Below, in pieces: positions 3,295 through 34,629 of a DNA stretch of 37,083 nt. The notes under the pieces are model-generated. The model was given only the letters and a program-made list of their open reading frames with translations. It was not told where the DNA came from and did no database searches. The number at the start of each line of letters is the position of its first letter. Positions within the stretch are counted from its first letter, which is position 1. Location of the stretch: IMG/VR virus record IMGVR_UViG_3300017991_000074. One strand, 5' to 3'. This DNA is from an uncultured virus (IMG/VR IMGVR_UViG_3300017991_000074) (taxonomy: Duplodnaviria; Heunggongvirae; Uroviricota; Caudoviricetes). A program made the translations under genes and the position numbers.

Positions 3295-5006
3295 GGGAAT
3301 TCACGGCACTGTTTCCTTTCGGTGGGCTGGGAGCCGGAGCTCGAGGTTTCCTTGACGCGGAGATAACGATTCTCGGAGAGAGGTCTCGATTTCGATCTCT
3401 TGGGGGAATCGACATTGACGCGGAGGCTTGCCGAGACTTCGAGAGGCTGACCGGGACTCCTTCGCTTCAGGCAGACATCGCTACCTTGACGGCCGGGGAG
3501 CTCAGGGCCTTTGTTGGACCGGAGGTTCCGGACGTGATCTTCACGAGCCCGCCGTGTAAAGGATTCAGCGGGCTTCTGCCGAAGAAGGTGGCGCGTAAGG
3601 AGAAGTATCAGAAGCTGAATCGATTGGTTATTCAGTGGCTTGATTTGGTCCTGGCCGCCTGGAAAGAGCGACCTCGGCTGATCATCATGGAGAACGTGCC
3701 GAGGATCACCAGTCGAGGGAAGGGGCTTTTGGATCGAGTGAAGAGGCTTCTTCGGAAAGAGGGCTACGTCTTCGATGAGAGGACCCATGACTGCGGAGAG
3801 CTCGGTGGTCTAGCTCAGCACCGCGTCAGGTATCTTCTCGTTGCGAGACTCCCTCGAAGATGTCCTCCGCTTCTCTACCAGCCGCCGCACCGAAGAGTGA
3901 AGGGCTGCGGCGAGCTACTCGGACAGCTTCCTCTCCCAGAACATGAGAGTGCCGGTTCGATGCATCAGCTACCGAAGATCAGCTGGCTCAATTGGGTTCG
4001 TTTGGCTTTGATTCCCGCTGGTGGAGACTGGCGGGATTTGCCGGGCGTGGTGAAGGATGGAGAGGAGCGGAGGGCGGTTCACAAGCGTCATGAGGTGGCG
4101 TGTTGGGAGAAGCCTACTGGGACGATTGCTGGGGTGGGATCGAACGGGGTGGGAGCTGTCGCAGATCCTCGGTTGAAGGTGGGGACCTACAAGGGGAAGT
4201 ATGGCGTTGGGGATTGGGAGAAGCCTTCGAGGACGGTGATCGGTGGAGCCAGTAACGGTGCGGCCTACATTGCCGATCCTCGGCCACAGGGCAATTGGCG
4301 CAAGGGCACTCTCGGTGTTGTTCCTTGGGACGAGGCGAGCGGTACCATTATTGGCGAGACGAAGATGGGGAAGGGGAAGTGTTCGGTTGCCGATCCTCGG
4401 CCAGCATCTCTGGATGAGAAGACGAGTTTTCGGAACACGTATCGGGTGCTTGGCTGGGAGGATTCGGCGACAACGGTTATCGGTGCGACGAGACCGGGAT
4501 CGGGGTCCTTGAGTATCAGTGATCCGCGATTGGATCAGCCGGCGTATGCCCATGCGTATCGAGTGCTTCGGTGGGAAGAGGCGAGTTTCACTGTTGCAGG
4601 GAAGTCGTCACCTGGATGTGGGGCCTATTCGGTGTCAGATGAACGGGTGAGAGGGGCTCCAAGGAAGCTCATCTTTGAGGAGTTGATTAGAGCGTGGGAC
4701 GGGAATCCCCGACGGCCACCACCATTTGTTCCAGTGATCATCGCTGACGATGGAACGTGGCATCGACCTATGACGACGCTGGAGCTTGCGATGCTGCAAG
4801 GGCTTCCGGTAGAGCTCCACGGCAAACCGTTGGAGCTCGTCGGATGGGCCTCGAGCCGGTGGAGGGAGAGGATCGGGAACGCGGTTCCGGTTCAGACCGC
4901 TGAGGCGATTGCGACGCAGATGTTGGTGGCGCTTTCCGAAGCAGCTGAAGGGGCGTTTTCTTTTGGGAGCACGCCGGTATGGGTGACTCCTGAGAGACGG
5001 CTTTAG
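3291..5006 (+). CDS. DNA (cytosine-5) methyltransferase with a repeat-expanded variable region
   Basis: Motif I-like FPFGGLGAG, motif IV SPPCKGFS (catalytic PC), motif VI ENV, motif VIII QHRVR and motif X IGNAV. Confidence 0.92.
   Translation: MREFTALFPFGGLGAGARGFLDAEITILGERSRFRSLGGIDIDAEACRDFERLTGTPSLQADIATLTAGELRAFVGPEVPDVIFTSPPCKGFSGLLPKKVARKEKYQKLNRLVIQWLDLVLAAWKERPRLIIMENVPRITSRGKGLLDRVKRLLRKEGYVFDERTHDCGELGGLAQHRVRYLLVARLPRRCPPLLYQPPHRRVKGCGELLGQLPLPEHESAGSMHQLPKISWLNWVRLALIPAGGDWRDLPGVVKDGEERRAVHKRHEVACWEKPTGTIAGVGSNGVGAVADPRLKVGTYKGKYGVGDWEKPSRTVIGGASNGAAYIADPRPQGNWRKGTLGVVPWDEASGTIIGETKMGKGKCSVADPRPASLDEKTSFRNTYRVLGWEDSATTVIGATRPGSGSLSISDPRLDQPAYAHAYRVLRWEEASFTVAGKSSPGCGAYSVSDERVRGAPRKLIFEELIRAWDGNPRRPPPFVPVIIADDGTWHRPMTTLELAMLQGLPVELHGKPLELVGWASSRWRERIGNAVPVQTAEAIATQMLVALSEAAEGAFSFGSTPVWVTPERRL
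4095..4646 (+). repeat. Five ~37-43 aa repeats (V..W...S.TI.G.....G...[AS]DPR) inside the methyltransferase
   Basis: DPR/DER codons at 4164, 4275, 4392, 4521 and 4638; exact 17-nt repeat TTGCCGATCCTCGGCCA at 4270 and 4387. Confidence 0.85.
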
Positions 5007-12036: not shown

Positions 12037-13884
12037 GTGGACGTCTTGATTACGCGGGAAACTCTTCCGCGACTCGCAGAAAAACTTGCAAGTTCAGATG
12101 AAGTAGGACTGGATTACGAGACCACGTCCTTTCATCCGATGGAGAAGGCTGCGCTTCAGTTTGATCGATTGAAGCCTGTGGGCTGGGGGTTTGGTTTTCC
12201 GGATGGCGAGGCGTTCTATCTTCCGGTTGCACATCAGATTGGGGACAATCTTCCGTTCGAGGAAACGGTGGAGCTTCTGAGGAAGGTGTTGACAGATCCG
12301 CACAAGATTGTGTGGGCGCACAACGTCAAGTTCGAGGCCATGGTTTCCAATGTTCTTCGGATTGAGCATCGGTGTCAGTGGAGGTGTTCGCTCTTGGCGC
12401 AGTGGCTTCTCGGGAAAGGATTCAGGGGGAAGCGGGGCCATAAGCTCAAGGCTGCAGTGCAGGAGTATCTCGGCCACAAGATGATTACGTGGGAGGAGGT
12501 AATCCCGAACAAGGCCCGAGCCCATATGGTTGCTCCGAGTGTGATGGCTCCCTACTGTGCTGACGATGCGTTGCAGGGTCTTCGTCTTGGTAATCACTTT
12601 CTCAAAGACATCAAAGAGCTTGGCATGGAGAAGGTCTTCGTCGAGCTCGAGATGCCGATAGCCTCTGAAGTGATTCCTCACATGGACGAGGCCGGCGTAG
12701 AGATTGACCGAAAGTTTCTGCGCAATCTGGCCACTGAGTACTCGACTGAGATGAAGGTTCTGCAGGAGGAGTTCTACAAGCTCTTCAAGATTTCGATCTC
12801 GAGCAACGCGAAGATCAGCACCAAGTTTTATGACCAGCTCAAGCTGTGGCCCATCCTCCCCCAGTTCAAGAGGGGGAAGAGTGGCCGTATCTCTGTTGAT
12901 GCGAATCACCGAAAGATGGTTCGAGCTTCGGTGAAAGAGGGAACCGAGGGTCACCGAGCATTGGACCTGAAGGATCGCTACCAACGCCTGTCCAAGATTG
13001 TCAGCACCTACACGCATTCCATCATCAAGAGAGCGGATCGATATGTCGATGGTCGGGTGCGTTGTGAGTGGCGGCAGCATGGAACGGAGACGGGAAGATT
13101 TGCTTCTCGCAATCCGAATCTGCAGAACGTTCCGATTCGGACCGAGGAGGGGCGAAGGGTTCGAGATGCGTTCGTCGCTGCGATGGGGTGGAATCTTTAC
13201 GACAGGGATTATAGCGGGGCAGACCTTCGAGTTTTTGCTCATCTGTGTCGGGACGAAAGGATGCTCGAGCGGTTCAATTCGGACGACGATGATCTCCATC
13301 AGGAGACTGCGGATGCCTGTGGGGTGAAAAGGCAGACGGGGAAAACGGCGAACCTGGGGCTCATCTATGAGATGGGATCAAAAACCTTGGGGAAGGGGAT
13401 AGGGGCCCCGGAGCATGTGGCACAGCGTATCTGGGAGGAATGGCACGCCACCTATCCCAGGGTGCGGCGGTATCATCGACGCCAGCATGCATATGCCAGG
13501 AAGCATGGATTCGTTCGGACCATCACGGGACGGATTCGACCTACGGAGGGGATCGATTCCTCGAAGACGTGGCTCAGGCTCAAGGCGGAGCATGCCTCAA
13601 CCAACACGCCGGCGCAGGGATCGGTTGGAGACATCATCAAGATCGCGATGCGGAACTTGGTCAAGGAGTGGAAGGATCGGGGGGTGCTCTTCAATTGGTA
13701 CACCAAGAAGGGCAAGGCCAAGGTCACTATCCAGGTGCATGACGAGCTGGTCATCGAGCTCAAGGACGGTTTCAAGGAGGAAGGTGCCGCGGATGTCAAG
13801 AGGCACATGGAGGAAGCTGTAGAGCTGCGGGTGCCCTTGAAGACAGACGGTGGTTTTGGTCGAACGTGGTTGGAGGCACATTGA
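12037..13884 (+). CDS. polA: Family A DNA polymerase with 3'-5' exonuclease domain
   Basis: Exonuclease motifs LDYETT, HNVKFE and YCADD; TETGRFASRNPNLQN; motif A DYSGADLR; motif B R..GKTANLGLIY; motif C QVHDEL. Confidence 0.95.
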   Translation: MDVLITRETLPRLAEKLASSDEVGLDYETTSFHPMEKAALQFDRLKPVGWGFGFPDGEAFYLPVAHQIGDNLPFEETVELLRKVLTDPHKIVWAHNVKFEAMVSNVLRIEHRCQWRCSLLAQWLLGKGFRGKRGHKLKAAVQEYLGHKMITWEEVIPNKARAHMVAPSVMAPYCADDALQGLRLGNHFLKDIKELGMEKVFVELEMPIASEVIPHMDEAGVEIDRKFLRNLATEYSTEMKVLQEEFYKLFKISISSNAKISTKFYDQLKLWPILPQFKRGKSGRISVDANHRKMVRASVKEGTEGHRALDLKDRYQRLSKIVSTYTHSIIKRADRYVDGRVRCEWRQHGTETGRFASRNPNLQNVPIRTEEGRRVRDAFVAAMGWNLYDRDYSGADLRVFAHLCRDERMLERFNSDDDDLHQETADACGVKRQTGKTANLGLIYEMGSKTLGKGIGAPEHVAQRIWEEWHATYPRVRRYHRRQHAYARKHGFVRTITGRIRPTEGIDSSKTWLRLKAEHASTNTPAQGSVGDIIKIAMRNLVKEWKDRGVLFNWYTKKGKAKVTIQVHDELVIELKDGFKEEGAADVKRHMEEAVELRVPLKTDGGFGRTWLEAH

Positions 13885-22879: not shown

Positions 22880-23803
22880 ATGAACATCCAACAGATCAAG
22901 CCGGCTGGATTGGACGGACGGGTACCACCGGGCCCGGTCCTCGGTGAAGAGAAGATCGACGGTCACCGCGCCCTGTTTCATTTTGGGCACGGGCTTGACC
23001 GAGGGTACATGACAGGTCGTCGCGTCTCGAAACAAACCGGGTTGTACACCGAGAAGGGTGAGTGCGTACCGCACATCTTGAACCAGGCCATGCGACTGGT
23101 TCAGAAGAGGTGCGGCTACACCGTGCTGGATGGAGAGCTGGTCCTATCGGGGATGAATTTCGAGTCGATCCAGAGCGTGATGGGTTCCTCTTCTCAGCGC
23201 GCAGTGGATTGGCAGTGCGCCAATCAATTGATGGAGTACGTGGTTTTCGACGTATTGTTTTGGAACGGGATCGATATCCGAACGAAGCCACGAGAGGCTC
23301 GATTCATGGTGGCTCGAGCCATCGTTGGGAAGCTGAGGTCGCCGTACATTCGGTTGGTGGAGCAGAGAAGGCTCGAGTGTCGGGAGGATCGAGTCCAAAT
23401 GTTTGACGAGGTCACGGCTGCTGGAGGAGAGGGCATCGTGATCAAGACAATCAACGGCAAGTACGGTTTCGGTCAGCGTCGGTTGAAGGTGGAGAAGACC
23501 TTTGACGTAGTGATCACAGGCTTTACCGATGCGAAGGAAGGTAAGACTGGCAAGTTCAAAGGGCTCATCGGAGCGGTTCGATTCGGGGCTTATCGAGACG
23601 GAAAGATGGTGGAGCTTGGCAAGTGCTCCGGGATGAGCGACACTCTTCGCCGTCGATTTTCGAGCGCGAAGAAGGAGTTCCTCGGTCAAGTGATCGAGGT
23701 GAAGTGCAATGGGATAACGCGGCATGGCCGATTGCGCCATCCGCAGTTCAAGCGATTCCGGCCTGACAAAGCGTCGGAGGAGTGTTTGGCACCGGCTACT
23801 TAG
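22880..23803 (+). CDS. ATP-dependent DNA ligase (compact)
   Basis: EEKIDGHR (adenylated Lys), LDGEL, VFDVL, EGIVIK and LRHPQFKRFRPDK motifs. Confidence 0.93.
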   Translation: MNIQQIKPAGLDGRVPPGPVLGEEKIDGHRALFHFGHGLDRGYMTGRRVSKQTGLYTEKGECVPHILNQAMRLVQKRCGYTVLDGELVLSGMNFESIQSVMGSSSQRAVDWQCANQLMEYVVFDVLFWNGIDIRTKPREARFMVARAIVGKLRSPYIRLVEQRRLECREDRVQMFDEVTAAGGEGIVIKTINGKYGFGQRRLKVEKTFDVVITGFTDAKEGKTGKFKGLIGAVRFGAYRDGKMVELGKCSGMSDTLRRRFSSAKKEFLGQVIEVKCNGITRHGRLRHPQFKRFRPDKASEECLAPAT

Positions 23804-23817
23804 ATAAAGGAGAAGAC

Positions 23818-24900
23818 ATGCCTGAGTTTCAGACAATCAAGATCGACAAGGTCGACGTGATGGACATGCAGACGAGGTCGAACCTCGGCGACCTGACGGA
23901 TCTGACGGCCAGCATCGCGGCCAGGGGGGTGCAGGAGCCCGTTCTGGTCAAGGCGCTGGACTCCGGGAGGTTCGAGCTGTTCGCCGGCCAGCGGCGGCTC
24001 GAGTCGTCCAAGAAGGCAGGGTTGACGGACATCCCGGCCCTGGTGCATCCCCGGCGCAAGGTGACGCGCCAGATGATGCTCGAGCTCAACATGGTCGAGA
24101 ACGTGCAGCGCGACGACCTCAACGCCATCGACGAGGCGAAGGGTTTCGAGAAGCTGCAGACCGAGTTTGGCCTGAGCGATGACGAGGTGTGCTCCCGTCT
24201 GGGCATCAAGAAGAAGCGGCTGAAGGACCGCAAGCGGCTGCTCAAGATGGCGGATGTGGTGCAGGAGGCGATCCTGAACTGTCGCATCACGCTCAAGGCG
24301 GCCTTCGAGATCGATCGACTGCCCAAGGACCGACAGGGCAAGTTCGTCCGGATCGCCGAGGAGCTCAAGGGGGGCCGGCTGACCAAGATGGTCGACAAGG
24401 AGCTGGAGAAGATCGAGAACAAGGCGGGGGCCAAGGACAAAAAGCCACCGCCGGACAAGGACAAGGCGGCGGTCACCGAGATGATCCGGACCCTGCGCAA
24501 GGCGGGACAGGTAGCATGCAACGGCCTCGGCTACGACGACATGAAGAAGCAGCGGGTCAAGGAGGTCAACTTCCGGCTTCTCGAGATGGACGACCTGAAG
24601 GTGGTCACGCAGTTCGTCGACGACATCGCTGACCAGGTGCCGGATGACGTGGACTGCAACGAGAAGGCCGAGGCCGAGATCGTGGCGGCCGTGGAGGGAC
24701 CGAGGGCTCTGAACGTGGAGTGGCCAACGGTCCGCGCCGGTCTGGTGGACATGGTGATGCGTCGGGCAAGGGAGAAGGCCTTCGATAACGCGAGTGGCAG
24801 CGGGAAGCGCCCCAAGATCACCTTCGCCGTGGCCAAGGAGATCATCGACGAGTTCTTCGAGGAGGTGACGGAAGAGGAGGAGACCCCGTCCGCCGAGTAG
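23818..24900 (+). CDS. ParB/RepB/Spo0J-family protein
   Basis: L.ASI...GV.EPVLV, AGQRRL, ENVQRDDLNAIDEA and an HTH; AAGGAG SD before ATG 23818. Confidence 0.9.
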   Translation: MPEFQTIKIDKVDVMDMQTRSNLGDLTDLTASIAARGVQEPVLVKALDSGRFELFAGQRRLESSKKAGLTDIPALVHPRRKVTRQMMLELNMVENVQRDDLNAIDEAKGFEKLQTEFGLSDDEVCSRLGIKKKRLKDRKRLLKMADVVQEAILNCRITLKAAFEIDRLPKDRQGKFVRIAEELKGGRLTKMVDKELEKIENKAGAKDKKPPPDKDKAAVTEMIRTLRKAGQVACNGLGYDDMKKQRVKEVNFRLLEMDDLKVVTQFVDDIADQVPDDVDCNEKAEAEIVAAVEGPRALNVEWPTVRAGLVDMVMRRAREKAFDNASGSGKRPKITFAVAKEIIDEFFEEVTEEEETPSAE

Positions 24901-24983: not shown

Positions 24984-26180
24984 ATGTCTCTAGTGCACCA
25001 CGACAACAGGCCCTATGCCGAGGCTGCAGGTGATGCAGCGGCTCGAGCAAAGGACCATCTCGCCGCGCTGATCGAGAACGGGAAGCAGTCGGCTACCTCG
25101 GTGATCGAGAAGGTCATGACAGAGGTTCCCGTCGACCGGATCGTCAGGGGAAAGGCCCTCCGCTTCGACGGAAACATCGAGAAGCGGAACGAAGGGCTTC
25201 CGGCGGGAATCCTTGCAGCCTTTCCCGAATCCAATGGGGAGGAGCAGCGGTCGGAGTTCCCGCTCATCAACCAGACCCTGGCGGACACGCACAAGCTGGG
25301 CATCCACAAGCACGCCCTCTCCCAGGTCTGCCAGCGGGTGGGGTTCCCCTGGAAGTACGCTCAGGCTCTGCGCGAGGTGGAGCTGGAGACCTGGGGCCTT
25401 CCGCTGCTGGCCCACAACCTGAATGAGCTCTACGCTCGAAAGGGGGGACGGTTTCTTCTTCGGAGCCATGACCAGGAGCTCCGTGGATTCCTGAGCGACC
25501 GCTACCGACGCCTAGACTCGAGGCCACTGGTGGAGGCCTTTGCCGGGGCCTGTGAGAAGGTCGGGGCGGTTCCGGTCCAGGGCTACGTCACCGATACCAA
25601 GGTGGCGCTCAAGGCGATGCTTCCGATGGTCTTCGAGCCGGCGCCGAATGAGGTGGTCGCCTTCTATGTCTACTGGGGCAACTCCGACTACGGCAACGGC
25701 GCGCACGAGCTGAAGGTGGGCATCCTCCGCCTTTGGTGCACCAACTACGCCATCATGGACGATGTTCTGCGCCAGGTGCATCTCGGCAAGAGACTGACCG
25801 AGAACATCTCGTGGAGCCAGAAGACCTACGAGCTCGACACCAAGGCCATGGCGTCGGCGATCGAGGACATCGTCTCACAGAGCTTGAACGCGGATCGCAC
25901 CACGGAGCTCTGCGACGCCATCAGGGTGGCCCACGAGGAGAAGATCGACCCGAGGAAGGCGATCGCCCGGCTCAAGAAGGACCTGACCAAGGGGGAGGCG
26001 GCCGACGTGGTCGAGGCCTTCAACTCCCCAGATGTAGAGAATCTCCCCCCAGGGAACACGGTGTGGAGGATGTCCAACGCCATTTCTTGGGTGGCGGGCA
26101 AGACAGAGGACACCGAACGCAAGTTGGATCTGATGAAGGTGGCGGGCAAGGCCATGTCTTGGATTCAGCGAGCGGCCTGA
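24984..26180 (+). CDS. DUF932-like phage/plasmid protein
   Basis: RGFLSDRYRRLD, NSDYGNG, LRLWCTN, RQVHLG and TVW..SNAIS motifs. Confidence 0.7.
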   Translation: MSLVHHDNRPYAEAAGDAAARAKDHLAALIENGKQSATSVIEKVMTEVPVDRIVRGKALRFDGNIEKRNEGLPAGILAAFPESNGEEQRSEFPLINQTLADTHKLGIHKHALSQVCQRVGFPWKYAQALREVELETWGLPLLAHNLNELYARKGGRFLLRSHDQELRGFLSDRYRRLDSRPLVEAFAGACEKVGAVPVQGYVTDTKVALKAMLPMVFEPAPNEVVAFYVYWGNSDYGNGAHELKVGILRLWCTNYAIMDDVLRQVHLGKRLTENISWSQKTYELDTKAMASAIEDIVSQSLNADRTTELCDAIRVAHEEKIDPRKAIARLKKDLTKGEAADVVEAFNSPDVENLPPGNTVWRMSNAISWVAGKTEDTERKLDLMKVAGKAMSWIQRAA

Positions 26181-26199
26181 GGTACGGTTGTAGTTGGTT

Positions 26200-26311
26200 G
26201 GACCATGAGACCTGTCTACTTCCCCCGGACGAGGTCAAGGCAGCGTCGCTGCACTAGGTTTGGTCGCCATGGGTGCCGCGATGAACGTCGGTTCGAATCC
26301 GACCATGGTCC
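26200..26311 (+). ncRNA. tRNA-like element (acceptor stem + T-arm; non-canonical D and anticodon arms)
   Basis: GGACCATG (26200-07) pairs with CATGGTCC (26304-11); perfect T-arm GTCGG-TTCGAAT-CCGAC (26287-26303). Confidence 0.65.
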
Positions 26312-26313
26312 CT

Positions 26314-26481
26314 GCGGTAGAGCTGGTGACGCAGCTCATCTCTCCCGAGGAGCTAGTCCCACATCCGGGTCGTCACAACTCGGAGAAAGCACGCCCGGCG
26401 GATACCCGGGAGGTTTGGTTCAGGGGATGATCGACGGTGGCGTCCAGCCTTCGTGGTGTAAGGTTTCTCGGGAGAGGCCGC
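26314..26481 (+). ncRNA. Candidate multi-stem structured RNA
   Basis: A 15-bp stem (26340-54 with 26462-76) encloses several hairpins; strand inferred from neighbouring genes. Confidence 0.5.
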
Positions 26482-26506
26482 TCCTATTTAGATTTAGGAT
26501 TGAGAC

Positions 26507-27550
26507 ATGTCACTTCGAGATGTAGTTCGACAGATTCATGGGCCAACGGATCTTTCTTCGGATATTGATCGCTTCATATCGACCCAAGAAAAGCAGTTTC
26601 CGAGCAATCGGGAGGAGGGGTGGCATCCCTCTGAGTTCTGTGGAGCTTGTGCTCGAGCTCTCGTGATCAATTCCTTGGTAGTGATCCCGAAGAAGGAGAT
26701 CAAACCAAAGCTTCGGCGCATCTTTGACGTGGGGACCTCGACGCACCGCTTGTACCAGGAGGAGTATCTGGGGCCTATGGGGGTGCTGTGGGGGAAGTGG
26801 AGATGCTCTCGGTGCCATACGGTCAAATGGGGCTTCATGCCGAAGCGTCGATGTGCATGCACAGAAGAGGATCGTGACTCGACATGTTTTCGGGTCTGCG
26901 GTGAGGGGGTAGAACAGCGTACCGCGACCTCGTGGCCCTATACGATTTGGTCCAAGAGGCTCATGGAGAATCGAGGCGGTTGTATTCATTGTGGTGTATG
27001 GGGGCACTGGGAGTTTCGAGAGATTCCATTCAAGAGCGACAATACGTTGTTGTCCAAGCCGATTGTTGGGCATAGTGACGGGCTAATCCGGCTCGGAACA
27101 TTTTGGATCGTATTAGAGATCAAAACGATCAATAGTTATGGATTCGCAGCACTACGTGAGCCGAAGGAAAACCATGTTTTGCAGGGCACAACGTATACCG
27201 AGCTGGTGCTTCGCAAGAAGGTACGGAGACTTCCAGGAGAAATTCAGGTTCCAACGCCGGATGAGCTTTGGATCTTGTACGTGGGAAAGAATACGTCCGA
27301 CGAAAAGGTGTACAAGATTCCGATTGATATGGAGATGCGGGAGAAGGGTGCTCGACTTTTAGAGAAGCCTGAACTGGTCGATCAGTCGATTGAGAAGGGA
27401 GTCCTTCCACTTCGACTGGTGGAGTGCGACAGTAAGAAGGCAAAGCGAGCGAAGAAGTGCGCGGCGAAGAAGTATTGCTTCGCCAAGGAAGTAACCTTCG
27501 CGAAATTGAAGAAACTCGGGGAGGAGCAACGTGGCCGACTCACCAAGTGA
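26507..27550 (+). CDS. Cas4-like PD-(D/E)XK exonuclease
   Basis: HPSEFCGAC, G..TH, EFRE, GHSDG and LEIKT motifs, three C-terminal Cys, and an internal Cys-rich insert. Confidence 0.8.
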   Translation: MSLRDVVRQIHGPTDLSSDIDRFISTQEKQFPSNREEGWHPSEFCGACARALVINSLVVIPKKEIKPKLRRIFDVGTSTHRLYQEEYLGPMGVLWGKWRCSRCHTVKWGFMPKRRCACTEEDRDSTCFRVCGEGVEQRTATSWPYTIWSKRLMENRGGCIHCGVWGHWEFREIPFKSDNTLLSKPIVGHSDGLIRLGTFWIVLEIKTINSYGFAALREPKENHVLQGTTYTELVLRKKVRRLPGEIQVPTPDELWILYVGKNTSDEKVYKIPIDMEMREKGARLLEKPELVDQSIEKGVLPLRLVECDSKKAKRAKKCAAKKYCFAKEVTFAKLKKLGEEQRGRLTK

Positions 27551-28043
27551 TACCAGTAGGAGCTTGAAAAAGGCAGAAGCCAAGATCGATGCTTTGGGAC
27601 TCCCATTGCCGGAGAAGCCGGAATCGGGTGAGGACGATCCCAAGTGGCCCCGAAATATAGCGGACCTCTCCCCAGACGAATTGGCCTACCATCTGACCTG
27701 GTGGAGCGGGTGGAGCTCGTATGCTCGGCATCACCTTGCTCGAGCGCAGACCGATTTTGCTGCCTTCAAGAGAGACTTGAAATTGGAGACGGACACGCGA
27801 GTATTCAAGTCAGTTGGGGACTATAAAACGGTGACTGAGTGCAAGGCCTCCATTGCTCAACGGCCGGACATGATTCGGATGGCGATTCGAGAGCAGGAAG
27901 CCGAGGCCATGGTTACCATGATGAAGTCTTTGCTCGAGGGTTACGAAGACAAGTACGCCACGACTTCGAGAGAGATCAGTCGGCGCGGTTTGGACTTCCA
28001 CCACAGTGTTACTGACGAGGGGAGAGATCGCTGGAATGCCTAA
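27531..28043 (+). CDS. Helical hypothetical protein, possibly UvsY-like
   Basis: GAGGAG SD; coiled-coil-like sequence ending SREISRR; lies between exonuclease and resolvase. Function is a guess. Confidence 0.5.
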   Translation: MADSPSDTSRSLKKAEAKIDALGLPLPEKPESGEDDPKWPRNIADLSPDELAYHLTWWSGWSSYARHHLARAQTDFAAFKRDLKLETDTRVFKSVGDYKTVTECKASIAQRPDMIRMAIREQEAEAMVTMMKSLLEGYEDKYATTSREISRRGLDFHHSVTDEGRDRWNA

Positions 28044-28575
28044 GCGTGCCTGGTTGATGGCGATTGATGCGTCGGTGACGGGGACAGCCATCGTGGTTCT
28101 TGGCGAAGACATGATGTTGCGACAAGAGTTCATAACCAAGGCGTCGGATTGGGAGAAAACCATCGAAGGTCGGGTGGAACGGTTCATGAGTATCGTCACC
28201 CCGATTCAGGCTTTGGCTAGGAAATGGTGGCCTGAGCGGTTGTTGATTGAGGACTATGCGTTCAACGCGAAAGGGAGTAGCGGCATCACTCTCGGAGAGT
28301 TCGGTGGGATTCTTCGGAGAGAAATCATCGGATATTTTGATTCGTCGGCGGAGGTTCCGCCAAGCGTGATCAAGAAATTTGCTACAGGAAAGGGGAATGC
28401 TGGGAAGCCGGCGGTCATCTCGGCGTTGACCTTGCGTTACGGTCTTCGATTCGATACGGACAATGCCGCGGATGCTTTTGCGCTGGCAAAGCTTGGTGAG
28501 ATTGTGGCAGGCTATGAGCAGGCACAGACCAGGTTTCAGCAACAAGCCGCTGATACAGTTTTGAAACTGCTCTAG
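28036..28575 (+). CDS. ruvC: RuvC-like Holliday junction resolvase
   Basis: AIDAS.TGT, IEDY, PPSVIKKFATGKGNA.K and DNAADAFALA motifs. Confidence 0.88.
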   Translation: MPKRAWLMAIDASVTGTAIVVLGEDMMLRQEFITKASDWEKTIEGRVERFMSIVTPIQALARKWWPERLLIEDYAFNAKGSSGITLGEFGGILRREIIGYFDSSAEVPPSVIKKFATGKGNAGKPAVISALTLRYGLRFDTDNAADAFALAKLGEIVAGYEQAQTRFQQQAADTVLKLL

Positions 28576-28587
28576 TAGGAGACAAAG

Positions 28588-28890
28588 ATGCATAGCCGCC
28601 GAGAAGATCTCAGAGGAAATCAAACCGACAACGAGCAGCTGCTGAAGGTGGCAGGGAGCTCGAGTTCCTCGAAGGTGGCTGGGGCCATCGTCAAGTACAT
28701 GAACGAGGGGTGTGTGGTCACGCTGATCGCGATGGGCGCCGGCGCGGTGAACCAGGCGGTCAAGGCCATCGCCATCGCTCGAGGCATGGCTGCGCCTCAG
28801 GGGTGGGACCTCGCGTGCATTCCAGGTTTCTCGGACGAGCTTGTAGACGGCATCAAGAAGACGGCCATAACCTTCAAGGTCACAAGGTAG
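28588..28890 (+). CDS. spoVS: Stage V sporulation protein S family protein
   Basis: LKV..SS...VAGAI...AMGAGAVNQAVKAIAIARG..AP.G.DL.CIP.F, close to the SpoVS consensus. Confidence 0.92.
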   Translation: MHSRREDLRGNQTDNEQLLKVAGSSSSSKVAGAIVKYMNEGCVVTLIAMGAGAVNQAVKAIAIARGMAAPQGWDLACIPGFSDELVDGIKKTAITFKVTR

Positions 28891-28892
28891 GC

Positions 28893-29381
28893 ATGGGACA
28901 GCGACTGAGCGTTACGCGATCCTTTGAGTGGGATGCGACACATCGACTTCTGGGGCATTGGGGTCGGTGCTGCACTCTTCATGGCCACACCTATCGAGCA
29001 GAGGTCACGGTTGAGGCGAAGATGCTGACGCCGGACCTCGGAATGGTGGTCGACTTCAGCATTGTCAAGAGGGTGATCGGCGAGTGGATCGATCAGCATT
29101 GGGACCACACGGCGATTGTCTGCAGAGATGACAAGACCCTTTTGGAGTTTTGTGTCTCGGAGCATCGTGTGGGCAAGAGTTCTCGAGCTCCCTTTGTCTT
29201 GGAGAAAGCTCCGACGGCAGAGGCCATGGCGATGAAGCTGTTGAACATCTCGCAGCATCGTTTCGACAATCTAGAGCAGTTGGGGATTGTCTTGGAGGGT
29301 CCAGAAGTACGTTACGTGGTGACCAAGGTGGTGCTCTTTGAGACGCCTCGGTGTTGGGCAACGGCTACGCGCACAGAGTAG
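28893..29381 (+). CDS. queD: 6-carboxy-5,6,7,8-tetrahydropterin synthase
   Basis: F.WDATHRL, C..LHGHTY, GMVVDF, WDH, PTAE and LFETP motifs. Confidence 0.92.
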   Translation: MGQRLSVTRSFEWDATHRLLGHWGRCCTLHGHTYRAEVTVEAKMLTPDLGMVVDFSIVKRVIGEWIDQHWDHTAIVCRDDKTLLEFCVSEHRVGKSSRAPFVLEKAPTAEAMAMKLLNISQHRFDNLEQLGIVLEGPEVRYVVTKVVLFETPRCWATATRTE

Positions 29382-29404
29382 TAGAACCGGCAGGAGATTT
29401 GGAC

Positions 29405-29779
29405 ATGAAAGAGAAGCAGCCCTATCGAGAGGGAGATGAGGCGGAGAACCTGGAGGAGAAGACGGAGGAGAAGACGGAGACTGAGGAGACTCCGTCGGCT
29501 CCCAAGCAGGATCAGCCGCTTACCGCGTTTCTGGTCATTATCCAGGAGAATGGTAACGCCGAAGCCATGATTGGCGGGGACATCATGGAGATGGTCCAGG
29601 CCAAGCGAATGGCAACGCATCGGGACATTCGTGACGCATCGGCACAGCTGCTGATGGACACCCTCGTCACGATGTTGGTTATGGGAACGGCAACCGAGAC
29701 CTCCAAGTTCATGATGAAGGCGGCCGAGGCGCACATGGTCGAGCGCGTCAAGAACCAGCTGGTCCGCGGACGCCAATGA
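29405..29779 (+). CDS. Hypothetical protein
   Basis: AGGAG SD; acidic N-terminus; ATGA overlap with folE. Confidence 0.65.
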   Translation: MKEKQPYREGDEAENLEEKTEEKTETEETPSAPKQDQPLTAFLVIIQENGNAEAMIGGDIMEMVQAKRMATHRDIRDASAQLLMDTLVTMLVMGTATETSKFMMKAAEAHMVERVKNQLVRGRQ

Positions 29780-30345
29780 CGAGCCATGACGCACAGGCTC
29801 TGGTGGACATTGCTGCGGCAGTGAAGGAGGTCCTTCTCCCAGCCCTTGGAGAGAAGCTTGATCGGGAAGGGCTGAGGGATACTCCGAGACGGTTCGCGAG
29901 CATGATGCTCGAGATGACCTCGGGGCTGCGGGATAGCGCACCGGAGATCACGACCTTTGAGCGCGGTGATTGTGATCAGATGATCACCGTCTTCGACCTG
30001 GACTACTACAGCCTCTGCGAGCACCACTTGGTTCCCTTCTACGGAAGGGCCCATGTTGGCTACCTCCCAGGAGATCGAATTGCGGGGCTATCGAAGTTTG
30101 GTCGGGTTGTTGAACATTTTGCCAAGAGGCCGCAGACGCAGGAGTACATGACGTCGCAGGTTGCGGATTTCTTGATGAAGAAGCTCAAGCCTCAAGGACT
30201 CATTGTGGTAATCGAAGGCCGTCATCTGTGCATGTCGATGCGTGGGGTGAAGAAGCCGAACCACAACACGGTGACCTCAGCTATTCGTGGGGACATTCCT
30301 CGCAAGGAGTTCTTTGACATTATGAAGGCGCGGTCCAATGGCTAG
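29776..30345 (+). CDS. folE: GTP cyclohydrolase I
   Basis: REGLRDTPRR, SLCEHHLVPFYG, GLSKFGR, RPQTQE and HLCMSMRGVKK motifs. Confidence 0.96.
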   Translation: MTSHDAQALVDIAAAVKEVLLPALGEKLDREGLRDTPRRFASMMLEMTSGLRDSAPEITTFERGDCDQMITVFDLDYYSLCEHHLVPFYGRAHVGYLPGDRIAGLSKFGRVVEHFAKRPQTQEYMTSQVADFLMKKLKPQGLIVVIEGRHLCMSMRGVKKPNHNTVTSAIRGDIPRKEFFDIMKARSNG

Positions 30346-30688
30346 GCCACCAACAGCGGTAATCGACATCGACGGAGTCCTGGCTACAGGGGGACCTGAG
30401 GTCTATTCCGATGAGGCTGGGTGGGCATACGAGAAGTGCCGACCGATCTCTGAGGGGATTGAATTGGTGCGAGGCTTGATGACGAAGAAGATTCGAGTCA
30501 TCTTGCACACGGCTCGGTGGGAGAGCGATAGAGGAGTCACCGAGCAGTGGTTGAGGTTGCACCAGGTTCCTTACGACGAGCTCTTGATGGGGAAGCCGAG
30601 TGCGGACATCTATGTTGATGACCGCGGGTATCGATTTACTCCAGGTCTTCTTGGAATCTCGGAGGCGGTGCTCGAGCTGATCGGTTAG
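30338..30688 (+). CDS. Capless HAD-family phosphatase (EcbF/BcbF-like)
   Basis: DIDGVL, HTAR, MGKP and YVDDR motifs. Confidence 0.85.
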   Translation: MARPPTAVIDIDGVLATGGPEVYSDEAGWAYEKCRPISEGIELVRGLMTKKIRVILHTARWESDRGVTEQWLRLHQVPYDELLMGKPSADIYVDDRGYRFTPGLLGISEAVLELIG

Positions 30689-30709
30689 ATCGAAACATAG
30701 GAGAGAGAC

Positions 30710-30940
30710 ATGGCAGAAGCGAAGGTAGTTTCCAAGCATCAGGCTCCTGATGGATGGCGGTTCGTCGTCAAGGTCGAGGATTACGGAGTCATCGACGTTC
30801 TGGTGGCCAGGGGAGGCCTGGTAACGAGTTTCGGGTCGCATCCACCAGCTACCGCGCAGGTTGCATGCAACGCTGCCAAAAAGGCTCACCTTGACCGCTA
30901 TGCGGACATCTTGAAGCGCACCGGCGTAGTTCTCTTTTAG
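30710..30940 (+). CDS. Hypothetical protein
   Basis: AGGAG SD; 76 aa. Confidence 0.6.
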   Translation: MAEAKVVSKHQAPDGWRFVVKVEDYGVIDVLVARGGLVTSFGSHPPATAQVACNAAKKAHLDRYADILKRTGVVLF

Positions 30941-30961
30941 TGAGAGATCTGGGAGGGAGCT

Positions 30962-31669
30962 ATGGGCACGCATGCCGTTGTCCTCTATAGCGGAGGACCC
31001 GATTCGTTCATCACATGGCAGTGGGCAAAGCAGCAAGACTATTTGTCGCTGACCTCGTGTTACGTGCAGTTGGGTCACCGTTACCAGCCGGAGGAGATTC
31101 GAGCTGTTACCGACACGGTTCCGGCGACCTTCATCGAGAAGGTGGTTCAGGGCATGGGCGTGTGGGAGGAAGATGACGCCCATATCTTTGGTCGGAATGC
31201 CTTCCTGTGCCTGGTAGCGGCCCGCCTACTCCCTCAGGGTGTGGACGGTGAGGTTCTTCTCACGGTTCAAGAAGACGAGCTGTTGATTCCGGATCGCAAG
31301 CCGAAGTTTCTGAAGCAGATGAGTATCTTGCTCACCATGCTTCGGGAGTTTCCGACCACGGTGTATTCTCCGTGGTTGCAGATGGACAAAACCGACATGG
31401 TCGAGTGGTATCTCAAGGAGGGGGTTCCAGAGGAATTGAAGAGGACCCATTCGTGCTACTCGGCGCATCGAGTGGAGGGGAAGCAGTGCGGGGATTGTGC
31501 GGCGTGCTTCCGACGAGCGGTGGCGTTTGGGCTCAACGGGATTGCTGAGGAGTATACCGTCGATCCTTTCAGCTCGGCGACGGCTCTTCGTTATGGCAGG
31601 AGGGCCTTGGCTGGAGCGTACAGCGAGAAGAGGAAGGGACGAATTTTGATGGCGATGGGAGGTCTATGA
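30962..31669 (+). CDS. queC: 7-cyano-7-deazaguanine synthase
   Basis: LYSGGPDS PP-loop, GRN, SPW...DK, THSCY and CGDCAACFRR zinc motif. Confidence 0.9.
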   Translation: MGTHAVVLYSGGPDSFITWQWAKQQDYLSLTSCYVQLGHRYQPEEIRAVTDTVPATFIEKVVQGMGVWEEDDAHIFGRNAFLCLVAARLLPQGVDGEVLLTVQEDELLIPDRKPKFLKQMSILLTMLREFPTTVYSPWLQMDKTDMVEWYLKEGVPEELKRTHSCYSAHRVEGKQCGDCAACFRRAVAFGLNGIAEEYTVDPFSSATALRYGRRALAGAYSEKRKGRILMAMGGL

Positions 31670-32721
31670 TGCTTCCGATGGTCACACGAGTGGAGTGGCT
31701 TATCACGCGACGCTGCAATATTCGTTGCAGCTACTGTGCGATTCGGAATGCGAATCTTCGACTTGGAGATCAGCTAACCACCGAGCAGTGCCTCAAGGTG
31801 GTCCGGATTCTTGCGAAGAACTGGCCGGGAGCTCCAGTGAACTTTTTTGGGGGAGAGCCGACTACTCGAGAGGATTTGCCGGAGCTTTTGAGGGAGATGT
31901 CGAGACTCGGACAGATGGCGATTCTGAGCACCAACGGCATCAAGCTCTACGAGAACCGGGAGTACGTGGAGAAGCTCGCAGATTGCGGGCTGACCAACAT
32001 GACTGTGAGCTTCGACGGACTGACGCCGGGCCAGTGTGTCGACAAGAGCACATGGTCTCGAGCGAAGATTGGCCGATGGGTTCTTCAGGCGGCACGGAGA
32101 GCGGGCGTCAAGGATTTGGTCGCCAATATCACGGTGACAAAGCTCAACGTGATGCACCTTCCGGCCATTGTTCAAGCGCTGACGGAGGATGGTATCTGGA
32201 GCATCCTCTGCATGCTTCAGCTGGGGCACAACGGCTACGAGTATTCCTGCGGCAAGCGGTCGATGCTCCCCTCTCAGGAGCAGATGGAGAAGGTGTTCCC
32301 GACTCTAGCTGCGATGGCGTGGTCCAAGAAGTACTTGCTTCAGACCTCTGGGGATTGGTTCAAGTACCTGTTGGAACACGGTGTTGAGGAGCAGAACTGG
32401 AAGTGCAACACCAAGGCGTCACTGACCATTGATTCGGATGGAACGTTGAAGCATTGCGTCGACGTTCCTCTGGAGGTCCCGCTCACGATCTTCGACCTTG
32501 AGCGAGTGGCGGGACAGATTCATTATGAGCGGTTGATCAAGGAGCCGAAGTGCGAAGGATGTCTTTGGGACTCGGCCTACGATTCGATTCGGCGTGGTCA
32601 GTTGACCCTGGGCGAGGATGAGGCGCGGCGCTGGTATCGACACGAGCTGACGGAGAAGGAAGTAGCAAATCTGGTACCTGAGGCTCGGTGGTGGTTCAAG
32701 AAGAGGGAGTGGGACAAGTAG
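31666..32721 (+). CDS. Radical SAM enzyme with a C-terminal SPASM/Twitch-like domain
   Basis: CNIRCSYC, GGEPT and STNG motifs; C-terminal C...IDSDG.LKHC...CEGC. Confidence 0.88.
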   Translation: MMLPMVTRVEWLITRRCNIRCSYCAIRNANLRLGDQLTTEQCLKVVRILAKNWPGAPVNFFGGEPTTREDLPELLREMSRLGQMAILSTNGIKLYENREYVEKLADCGLTNMTVSFDGLTPGQCVDKSTWSRAKIGRWVLQAARRAGVKDLVANITVTKLNVMHLPAIVQALTEDGIWSILCMLQLGHNGYEYSCGKRSMLPSQEQMEKVFPTLAAMAWSKKYLLQTSGDWFKYLLEHGVEEQNWKCNTKASLTIDSDGTLKHCVDVPLEVPLTIFDLERVAGQIHYERLIKEPKCEGCLWDSAYDSIRRGQLTLGEDEARRWYRHELTEKEVANLVPEARWWFKKREWDK

Positions 32722-33519
32722 ATGCAGCAGGATCACATGGTTTCAGCGGTCATTCCGACAGTGGGTCGAGTAGAGACGCTTGCGATGACGCTCTACTCCC
32801 TGGCGACTCAGAGCTATCCGGTGTCCGAAGTGATCCTTCTGGACGAAGCAAAGAAGCCGGTGTCAGAGTCCTTCGTGGTCAACCAGGCGCTGGACCTCCT
32901 CTCCCTAGCTGGTGCGGACGTGAAGATTCTTCGACGCCGACATCGACGGGGGATCGGTGCGGCTCGATTGGAGCTCGCAAGGGAAGCGTCGTGGAACTGG
33001 GTCTTGATGGTGGATGATGACGTAGCGCTTCGGCCGGATTGTTTGGACGGTCTGATGGAAGTGTTGACTGCAAGCGAGCGAGCTTGGGCTGTGCCTTTCT
33101 GCTTCCTGGTCAACGCGGCTCTCGAGCTCGATGGCTACACGGATACGAAGGTCTCGTGCACCGACGTGGATGTGCGGAAGTGGACCGAACGTTATCCCTG
33201 GTTCGTGCCGTACTTCAACTATTCGGAGATATTCACCCAAGAGATTGAGGTGGCCGGGACCCAGGCGATCCTCTGGAAGAAAAAGGAGCTGCTCCGCGAC
33301 GAGTGTGTGCGGGTGCAAGCCTTGGGGAGATTGCCTCGAGAAGATACATACCTGACCAGGGTTACGGGTCCTGGGGTTTTCGTCAGCTCAGCTCGATGTG
33401 ATCATTTCGAGCATGAGAGTCAGGTTACCCGTGGCCAGTGGCAGAACTCGATGTTCTACCGAATCCACACGGCGATCATGAAGGACCCGAAGGGGTTCGT
33501 GGAACTGATGCGAGGATAG
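32722..33519 (+). CDS. GT-A fold (family 2-like) glycosyltransferase
   Basis: VSAVIPT.GR, EVILLD, GIGAAR, MVDDD and PRED motifs. Confidence 0.85.
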   Translation: MQQDHMVSAVIPTVGRVETLAMTLYSLATQSYPVSEVILLDEAKKPVSESFVVNQALDLLSLAGADVKILRRRHRRGIGAARLELAREASWNWVLMVDDDVALRPDCLDGLMEVLTASERAWAVPFCFLVNAALELDGYTDTKVSCTDVDVRKWTERYPWFVPYFNYSEIFTQEIEVAGTQAILWKKKELLRDECVRVQALGRLPREDTYLTRVTGPGVFVSSARCDHFEHESQVTRGQWQNSMFYRIHTAIMKDPKGFVELMRG

Positions 33520-33521
33520 AG

Positions 33522-33704
33522 ATGGGCGTTCAGAGTCAGAGTTTTGCCGAGGCGCAAGTCGAGTGGCGCAAGTGTTTCATGGAGGGGTATCATGCAGCGG
33601 TCCGAGCAGCCCGGGAAAAGAAGCCAACAAGAAACCCCTACGGAGAAGACACCGCAAATGGATTGGCGTGGAGAGCGGGAAGAAATTCAAGGCTCCCGAA
33701 GTAG
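33522..33704 (+). CDS. Small hypothetical protein (GY.A...NPY...W..G pattern)
   Basis: ATG at 33522 after GAGG; fills the gap between the two glycosyltransferases. Confidence 0.55.
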   Translation: MGVQSQSFAEAQVEWRKCFMEGYHAAVRAAREKKPTRNPYGEDTANGLAWRAGRNSRLPK

Positions 33705-33708
33705 GCCA

Positions 33709-34629
33709 ATGGTCGAGCGTGTTCTCATTGGAATTCCGACCAAGGATCGACACGAGTATCTCAGTGGCCTGCTCGCCACGATTTTGTTTCAGACCTATCC
33801 TGCCTTCGACGTGCTGATTGTCGACAGCTCTGAGGAGAGGGGACCTGCTGAAGAGGATGTGCAGGTCGATCGATTCGTCCAGGCGCTTCGAGGAGTGGGG
33901 AGGGATGTTTTCTTCGTAGAGGGAGTTTCGGCCGGGGCTTCAATGGTGGCACCGACCAACAGGATTCTGGTCGAGGCGGAGGACCGGGGATATGACTGGG
34001 TCTTCAAGGTGGACGATGACCACGTGATGCCGCCTGGCACGCTCCACAACCTCCTCCAGGCCGCGATGCTGCAGGAGGCGACTGACGGTCCTGAGGAGGC
34101 GCATAAGCGAGTCTTGGTCAGCGGAGTGACTCCTTGGATGCATCGAGTCTGGAAGGGCGCCTCGGGGCCGGACGATGCTGTTCGATCAATGAGGGATGTT
34201 GCGGAGCCGATTTCGGACATTTGGCTTGAGCCGGCAGACCGACGATTGGCTCAGGGCTACCGACATCACACGGATGTGAATCATTTCGACAAATTCGCTT
34301 CCCATGTAGTGGCGAGAACGACCATTGCGTCGGCCGCGAATTTCTTGATGAGACCCGACACTCGGATCTTGTGGTCGGACATGAGTGGTCGGTCGAATCT
34401 GGCGGACATCGCGTGGTTTCTTCAGTTGCAAAGATACTTGGGCTACGAGCTCTATTTCGAGACTGGCGTATGGGTGTGGCATGTAGTCGCTCCTTCCGGC
34501 GGTACTCGAAAGGGGCAGGAGACTTTTGACAAGGGAACTGGGGAGGATGAGGCTCTTCGGCGAAGGCAGATTGACAAGCTGGTGGAGCAACTGGGATTCG
34601 GTGCCAAGGGTTACAAGTATTGCGTGTGA
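33709..34629 (+). CDS. Second GT-A fold (family 2-like) glycosyltransferase
   Basis: VLIGIPTKDR, DVLIVD, KVDDDH and late H...P.GG.R motifs; start ATG 33709. Confidence 0.82.
   Translation: MVERVLIGIPTKDRHEYLSGLLATILFQTYPAFDVLIVDSSEERGPAEEDVQVDRFVQALRGVGRDVFFVEGVSAGASMVAPTNRILVEAEDRGYDWVFKVDDDHVMPPGTLHNLLQAAMLQEATDGPEEAHKRVLVSGVTPWMHRVWKGASGPDDAVRSMRDVAEPISDIWLEPADRRLAQGYRHHTDVNHFDKFASHVVARTTIASAANFLMRPDTRILWSDMSGRSNLADIAWFLQLQRYLGYELYFETGVWVWHVVAPSGGTRKGQETFDKGTGEDEALRRRQIDKLVEQLGFGAKGYKYCV

Follow-up and report, generated by a model that had tools for sequence, protein, structure and literature searches.

A fold-prone non-coding stretch between a tRNA-like element and a Cas4-like gene in an uncultured phage

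What occupies the 186 nt (26314–26499, + strand) that separate a tRNA-like element from a Cas4-like exonuclease gene in the genome of an uncultured phage? A sequence-only reading of the window (the whole 37,083-nt stretch of DNA analyzed here) had proposed a multi-branched structured RNA of no recognized family at this position. The window is a replication/recombination module with nearly all of its genes on the + strand; it encodes a DnaB-type helicase, a primase, a family A DNA polymerase, a ResIII helicase, RecA and an ATP-dependent ligase, as well as ParB (23782–24900, +), RuvC (28006–28575) and SpoVS. The 186-nt element sits in a 326-nt gap (26181–26506) between two co-directional genes, and all genes adjoining it are on the + strand. 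The upstream neighbor is a phrog_1362 family gene of unknown function (24984–26180, +; 398 aa; PHROGs E 1.2e-41), whose protein has 744 homologues at E ≤ 0.001, among them P0003, P0004 and P0005, which are 70–76% identical and encoded on Logan contigs of 1.9–4.3 kb. The downstream neighbor encodes a 347-aa Cas4-like/PD-(D/E)xK exonuclease (26507–27550, +; PHROGs 2506 exonuclease, E 9.6e-21; PHROGs 1706, E 1.8e-18), the product of which has no Pfam match. Farther along the window, a 7-deazaguanine (preQ0-type) set consisting of PTPS/QueD, GTP cyclohydrolase I, QueC and a radical SAM protein (28710–32721) is followed by two family-2 glycosyltransferases (32722–34629), a combination that suggests phage DNA base modification.

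The stretch is present in eight public runs of sediment and seawater from several studies, none of them listed as RNA. A contig from run X2 spans 25749–26580 with 0 differences, and contigs from other runs are identical wherever they cover the element. These identical contigs establish that the sequence is real and contiguous, and they offer no variation. Runs X6 and X7 yielded no contig over 26228–26403, which carries no evidential weight. The phage genotype is widespread.

The 186-nt stretch is non-coding. An open reading frame that runs across it (26205–26525) has no homologue at E ≤ 0.01 in a large protein collection (3 candidates) and belongs to no Pfam or PHROGs family. Its GC content is flat over the three codon positions (0.58/0.61/0.57), as compared with 0.54–0.64/0.34–0.51/0.59–0.90 in 15 real phage genes, and the three frames of the stretch have second-position GC contents of 0.56–0.61 versus 0.34–0.51 in the same 15 genes. 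On the missing homologue and the flat codon-position profile, we rejected this open reading frame as a conserved protein. A decayed small gene was rejected as well: tblastn of 14 small ORFs taken from the gaps of related phages gave no match within 26181–26506.

The sequence-only reading had not recognized an RNA family, and covariance-model searches agree, with Rfam 15 (4,227 models) giving 0 matches at gathering thresholds over the whole window. At E ≤ 10, the region 26100–26600 produced three matches, all far below gathering (score/gathering): YrlA (14.4/69), COG2908 (13.6/58.7) and sR53 (10.4/49). The best of these, to the YrlA/bacterial Y RNA-like family (RF02553), is insignificant and covers 26257–26366. 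The locus resembles YrlA in that a tRNA-like module adjoins a long helix; unlike in YrlA, the module here has an acceptor stem of its own to close it and stands in tandem with the long stem instead of being nested in it. No Ro60/Rsr (TROVE) gene was found among the 48 window ORFs scanned against Pfam. The score far below the gathering threshold, the tandem layout and the lack of a TROVE gene in the window led us to reject membership in this family. Identity as a tRNA or tmRNA was also rejected for the 186-nt element, which has no T-arm, gave 0 calls by ARAGORN and has no such Rfam match at E ≤ 10. The large ornate RNAs GOLLD and ROOL often lie beside tRNAs in phages and are several hundred nucleotides long. 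The element is like them in being a branched non-coding phage RNA candidate beside tRNA-type genes, and it differs in its size (168–186 nt), in having no Rfam match to them at E ≤ 10 and in belonging to no conserved family. We also found no conserved riboswitch-type leader: nine syntenic relatives (L002, L003, L004, L008, L009/L116, L017, L022, L082 and L083/L084) hold unrelated sequence before the Cas4-like gene. A 2023 survey reported 10,006 candidates for structured RNA from viruses and phages, leaders and tRNA-like ones among them (PMC10690425). A paper on AcrIIIA1 (PMC11662646) was set aside as not relevant, being concerned with host tRNA fragments.

Immediately upstream lies the tRNA-like element (26199–26313, +), delineated from its sequence and predicted fold. 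It combines an acceptor stem (GGACCATG/CATGGTCC) and a T-arm (GTCGG-TTCGAAT-CCGAC) with two long hairpins in place of the D and anticodon arms. ARAGORN called 0 tRNA or tmRNA genes in the window, and Rfam gave no tRNA or tmRNA match over 26100–26600 even at E ≤ 10. The T-arm region matches phage tRNA genes by blastn, and the tRNA-like piece folds with z = −2.77 relative to shuffles. The 186-nt element directly follows it on the 3′ side, as had been claimed, its first helix beginning 2 nt past the acceptor stem.

We located all of the motifs of the sequence-only reading where it had placed them. P1 pairs GCGGT (26314–26318, +) with GCCGC (26477–26481; pair probability 0.81–1.0), P2 is the hairpin GAGCTG-GTGACG-CAGCTC (26320–26337, +; 0.99–1.0) and P3 pairs CTCTCCCGAGGAGCT (26340–26354, +) with GGTTTCTCGGGAGAG (26462–26476; 0.93–1.0). 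P3 consists of 15 bp, namely a 10-bp Watson–Crick core, which was also found as inverted repeat I2, and 5 bp holding three G-U pairs; it counts as 16 bp with four G-U pairs if T26339–G26477 is included. A last hairpin, UCCUA-UUUAGAUU-UAGGA (26482–26499, +; 0.69–1.0), covers the Shine–Dalgarno (SD) sequence AGGA, 7 nt 5′ of the ATG at 26507. The RNAfold minimum free energy (MFE) and centroid structures both give P1, P2, P3 and this SD hairpin, and all four are stable in three sequence contexts. The element is accordingly predicted by folding to form a three-way junction of P1, P2 and the 15-bp P3, with a three-armed shape.

The proposed multi-branched structure holds up in part. P1, P2, P3, the SD hairpin and the well-defined hairpin CCCGG-CGGATAC-CCGGG (26394–26410, +; 0.96) all have pair probabilities of at least 0.69 and mostly near 1.0, whereas two inner helices, GTCCC/GGGAT (0.30–0.36) and GACG/CGTC (0.04), are weak. 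Because of these low values and the 0.56 of the hairpin TCCGGGT/ACTCGGA (26364–26384, +), the 107-nt interior of P3 (26355–26461, +) is not well defined. The 3′ strands of P3 and P1 (26462–26481, +) can alternatively fold into small local hairpins in competition with P3, and terminator-like local hairpins are found at 26462–26479 and 26470–26485. A U-rich stretch, TCCTATTT (5 T in 8), lies directly after P1.

Folding of the + strand over 26314–26499 gives an MFE of −84.9 kcal/mol (RNAfold; z −3.43), and none of 200 dinucleotide shuffles is as good; the corresponding values for the minus strand are −69.9 and z −2.88, with 2 of 200 shuffles as good. Because the borders had been fitted to the stems by the earlier reader, we applied a correction for window choice, comparing the element with the best 186-nt window of each shuffled 326-nt gap (z −2.10; 5 of 110 shuffles as good). 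The claim that the stretch folds better than shuffled sequence is thus borne out at the nominal z and falls to a significance of ~0.05 after correction. Measured against 1,191 native windows of 186 nt from the 37-kb stretch, the element has a GC-corrected residual of −3.0 sd, and three of these windows, mostly coding, are as extreme (9983, 18477 and 18508). Seven other non-coding gaps of the window have folding z values of −1.0 to +0.7 and 26314–26481 has −3.4; the element's gap is the sole one of eight with a clearly negative z (below −2).

The earlier proposal that G-U pairs point to an RNA on the + strand is confounded by base composition. With 34.1% G against 22.5% C (GC skew +0.21), the + strand holds 93 stems of at least 12 bp (G-U allowed, within 220 nt) versus 16 on the minus strand, about a sixfold difference; five + strand stems reach at least 16 bp under the same rules. 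This G excess means that G-U pairs are no independent pointer to a + strand RNA, a caveat that applies to every G-U-based strand call in the window. At 21 bp with seven G-U pairs, a stem inside the DNA polymerase gene (12571–12765) is the longest G-U-tolerant one of the whole window, so such stems arise in coding sequence here. We read the folding propensity as real and moderately unusual, not as statistically compelling. The stretch is a genuine spacer, non-coding and prone to fold; its identification as a new structured RNA relies on one sequence and an energy statistic that is marginal.

The 186-nt element appears to be unique to the window among the DNA searched. By blastn of the gap against 117 loci, the best match had E 0.15 over 21 nt. 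A single-sequence covariance model (R1, with the window stretch entered twice) was run on the window together with 99 of these loci and matched the element alone, everything else scoring at most 12 bits (E ≥ 1.1). Loci L100–L117 were outside that run; for L102, L112 and L116 the complete records were searched with R1 instead, and the other 15 were searched by blastn only. R1 matched none of five complete or near-complete relatives, and its best score on 12 loci with filters off was 9.3 bits (E 0.63). In a phage collection searched by blastn, all 20 matches listed of 264 matching records fell in query positions 96–142, the T-arm of the tRNA-like element, and a 3-kb query against the same collection gave no match. 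The plasmid collection returned eight weak, chance-level matches by blastn. Four exact or degenerate patterns had 0 matches each in viral_contigs, where the Cas4-like protein also had no relative, and no second copy of the element was found within the 37-kb window.

To place the locus among its relatives, we fetched 116 loci around homologues of the upstream phrog_1362 gene; the relatives are mostly contigs of ~80–115 kb with terminal repeats. The closest of them, L002, has a phrog_1362 protein 75% identical to that of the window and the same gene order (ParB, phrog_1362, Cas4-like, a 170-aa protein and RuvC). Its gap (3704–3810) is 107 nt long and lacks both the tRNA-like element and a counterpart of the 186-nt element. 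What it does contain is a plain hairpin of 20 bp, rich in G+C and lacking a U tail (MFE −62.5 kcal/mol, z −7.5), located 33 nt 5′ of the same Cas4-like gene. The window is thus not alone in having a structured intercistronic RNA at this junction; the L002 hairpin may be a tail-less terminator or an mRNA processing/stability hairpin. At other syntenic loci, the slot is about 200 to 1,275 nt long and carries unrelated cargo, namely tRNAs, Zn-ribbon ORFs and other small genes, and in L082 a long hairpin followed by TTCTTATT comes after the same gene.

Of the 107 loci whose flank is long enough, 8 carry a tRNA or tRNA-like element no more than 400 nt past the upstream gene; the junction is therefore a recurrent home for tRNA-type elements. 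In this slot, ARAGORN identifies tRNA Thr-TGT and Asp-GTC in L010 (3753–4084; same as L102), tRNA Lys-TTT in L012 (1698–1772) and tRNA Asp-GTC in L017 (2938–3009). Elements of a tRNA-like kind, 82–87 nt long, directly follow phrog_1362 in L004 (1747–1828), L008 (3660–3746) and L082 (3728–3814), and a similar one lies in L090 near 3678–3765. Those of L004, L008 and L082 have a 7-bp acceptor stem, a canonical T-arm, a long ‘variable-arm’ hairpin and a loop of 4–5 nt at the anticodon-loop position. ARAGORN called L008 alone among these anticodon-less elements, as tRNA-???, and the group may represent one family of tRNA mimics that do not decode. A conserved Zn-ribbon ORF of 64–68 aa (CDGPY...CPxCF...C..C; L008 3771–3977, L082 3839–4045, L004 1853–2047) starts exactly 25 nt past the acceptor stem of each element, and tRNA-like element and small ORF look like a cassette. 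In the window, the 186-nt element stands in place of the Zn-ribbon ORF.

Our preferred reading, to which we assign a probability of roughly 35%, takes the stretch for a leader of the Cas4-like mRNA that acts in cis and is specific to this lineage; excision of the tRNA-like element would expose it, and it would then cap the 5′ end and mask the ribosome site. The 186 nt would form a non-coding part of a + strand polycistronic transcript of the replication/recombination module. This operon transcript would be cut as the tRNA-like element is removed by RNase P/RNase Z-type processing, and the closed P1/P3 helix would then provide the Cas4-like–RuvC mRNA with a base-paired 5′ end that shields it from 5′-end-dependent decay. 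The adjoining UCCUA/UAGGA hairpin would damp translation initiation, and once P3 opens, local hairpins formed by its 3′ strand (GGGAG with CUCCU) could release the ribosome site. Beyond the predicted fold, each of these steps is one that we infer. We prefer the leader because it uses most of the constraining facts: the stretch is non-coding and holds no remnant of the relatives' small ORFs, no promoter separates it from its co-directional neighbors (0 sigma-70-like promoters in 25900–26700), its first helix begins 2 nt past the acceptor stem, its last is followed immediately by the SD hairpin and L002 has its 20-bp hairpin at the same junction. No classical terminator was seen around the element, and with only 25 nt from the end of P1 to the Cas4-like ATG, the downstream gene must be read through it. 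The nominal z of −3.43 in the sole clearly negative gap and the stability of the helices in three contexts are consistent with a functional leader, and the tRNA or tRNA-like elements at 8 of 107 loci fit tRNA-type processing at this junction.

Precedents for parts of this model exist. In phage T4, helices that sequester the SD or AUG of e, soc, 49 and I-TevI are documented as lowering translation (PMC3014915). As in those genes, the predicted helix pairs the SD just 5′ of the start codon; unlike them, it is appended to a 168-nt three-way junction and has only 5 bp, three of them A-U, so it would block weakly. Intercistronic hairpins that stabilize or process mRNA include the REP stem-loops of E. 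coli operons and the RNase III sites of the T7 early region. Stacking of P1 on P3 would give a comparable 20-bp helix between two genes of a polycistronic transcript, but here the predicted helix is broken by P2 and capped by the 107-nt interior. The nearest functional likeness of the element is to intercistronic or leader mRNA structures. Several observations weigh against a cis-acting leader all the same. No search returned a homologue, and there is consequently no covariation and no sign of selection on the fold; the nearest relative, L002, manages without the element; and the corrected fold is marginal, with three native windows its equal. The 107-nt interior has neither a defined fold nor a role in the model, and processing is assumed for a tRNA-like element that neither ARAGORN nor Rfam calls a tRNA.

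Several of the same observations make it almost as likely that the stretch is neutral filler, inserted or left over in this lineage within a cargo slot that is hypervariable, and transcribed only as part of the operon. The G-rich composition, together with one 10-bp inverted repeat arising by chance, would then account for its fold; by our own estimate, a perfect inverted repeat of 10 bp within 220 nt is expected several times per 37 kb, and the five + strand stems of at least 16 bp with G-U pairs point in the same direction. Absence from the 107-nt gap of L002, a slot that ranges from ~107 to ~1,275 nt among syntenic relatives with unrelated cargo, and the lack of a homologue in any search all fit a passive insertion, as do the marginal corrected significance and the comparable folds of coding windows. 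Neutral filler accounts less well for the sole gap of eight with z < −2 and for the nesting of P1, P2 and P3, which are bounded exactly by the tRNA-like element and the ribosome site. The genomes of such compact phages also retain few long non-coding stretches. The 0-difference contigs of other runs mark the stretch as real DNA and are silent on function.

It is unlikely, in our estimate, that the element is a stable small RNA of a new class, cut from a precursor common with the tRNA-like element and acting in trans in the manner of T4 RNAC and RNAD. Those two are small stable RNAs from the T4 tRNA gene region, described as of unknown function (PMC3014915). The likeness lies in a structured non-coding RNA beside tRNA-type genes in a phage, probably with a common precursor and processing; the difference is that the element adjoins a non-canonical tRNA-like element instead of a tRNA cluster, and abuts the ribosome site of a protein gene. 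No relationship to RNAC or RNAD in sequence or through Rfam was found. P1 joins the ends of a 168-nt unit (26314–26481) that begins 2 nt past the acceptor stem, and the unit fits no Rfam family. Closed ends are typical of stable processed RNAs. However, the only 3′-end signal is a weak U-rich stretch, there is neither a homologue nor a second copy in the window, and no gene for a partner protein is evident among the 48 ORFs scanned. With the ribosome site of the next gene directly against the structure, a leader is a better fit than a separate gene. The fuller proposal, that 26314–26481 is a new class of stable, tRNA-linked phage small RNA, freed from a shared precursor by the tRNA-processing enzymes that would trim the adjacent anticodon-less tRNA-like element, and acting in trans during infection as a metagenomic counterpart of RNAC/RNAD, strikes us as a little less probable again; in trans, the 168-nt unit would, for example, guide an RNA-binding factor of host or phage or serve it as a decoy.

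Equally improbable as that fuller proposal is a partial terminator/attenuator, or a barrier to 3′ exonucleases, between the ParB/phrog_1362 (and tRNA-like) unit and the Cas4-like/RuvC unit, with the P1+P3 helix as its stem and UCCUAUUU as its tail. The U-rich tail (5 T in 8) directly 3′ of P1 speaks for this reading, and 25900–26700 holds four terminator-like local hairpins versus 0.4 ± 0.6 in shuffles. The strong L002 hairpin at the same junction and the long L082 hairpin followed by its TTCTTATT tract also lend themselves to this explanation, although the former has no U tail. The form departs strongly from that of a terminator, however: the ‘loop’ would be at least 107 nt and branched, as against 3–8 nt in an intrinsic terminator, the enclosing structure is 168 nt, and only the small competing local hairpins satisfy the rule of the intrinsic-terminator scan. 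An efficient terminator would, moreover, silence the recombination genes, there being no room for a promoter before the ATG and none detectable.

A DNA-level element, with the stems as terminal inverted repeats of a MITE/REP-like palindromic repeat or as a protein-binding inverted repeat, is very unlikely: the 10-bp perfect inverted repeat CTCTCCCGAG/CTCGGGAGAG (117-nt spacer) has the same arm pair at 100–130-nt spacing as REP-like repeats of Methylobacterium, Bosea, Enterovirga and others, but these genome repeats share the seeded arms alone (best blastn 18–24 nt, E ≥ 0.048), extension of the stem requires G-U pairs, which are mismatches in DNA, no target-site duplication lies beside the arms, and a MITE/REP-type repeat was rejected on copy number, since the 37-kb window holds just one copy and neither the 117 loci nor the five whole relatives hold any. 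The P3 arm-pair pattern occurs at 116 loci in genome_contigs, many of them in a single genome. Among these loci (L118–L233, for example L127, L129, L130 and L139), a REP-like repeat of ~145 nt with CCCCTCTCCCGAGTGGGAGAGGGG-type hairpins at its borders is multicopy in Methylobacterium oryzihabitans and relatives (Bosea, Enterovirga, Microvirga), and a different repeat, GGACGGCTCTCCCGAGCCGTCC, occurs in actinobacterial MAGs; both are unrelated to the 186-nt element. Direct repeats TGAGACCTGTC/TGAGACATGTC (26206 and 26501), AGGTTTGGT present twice and short inverted repeats were considered as an insertion scar and dropped, because their number is that estimated for chance in a 500-nt region.

If the fold is functional, the locus would illustrate tRNA-type ‘punctuation’ in a phage operon, in which excision of a tRNA-like element would create a structured, self-capped 5′ leader for the mRNA of recombination genes. 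The element is at present an orphan sequence, and its main value is as a pointer to a slot that holds tRNA-type elements in related phages and is open to comparative study. Within that slot, the anticodon-less tRNA-like family is the more promising lead, since it offers, unlike the 186-nt element, several diverged copies to compare.
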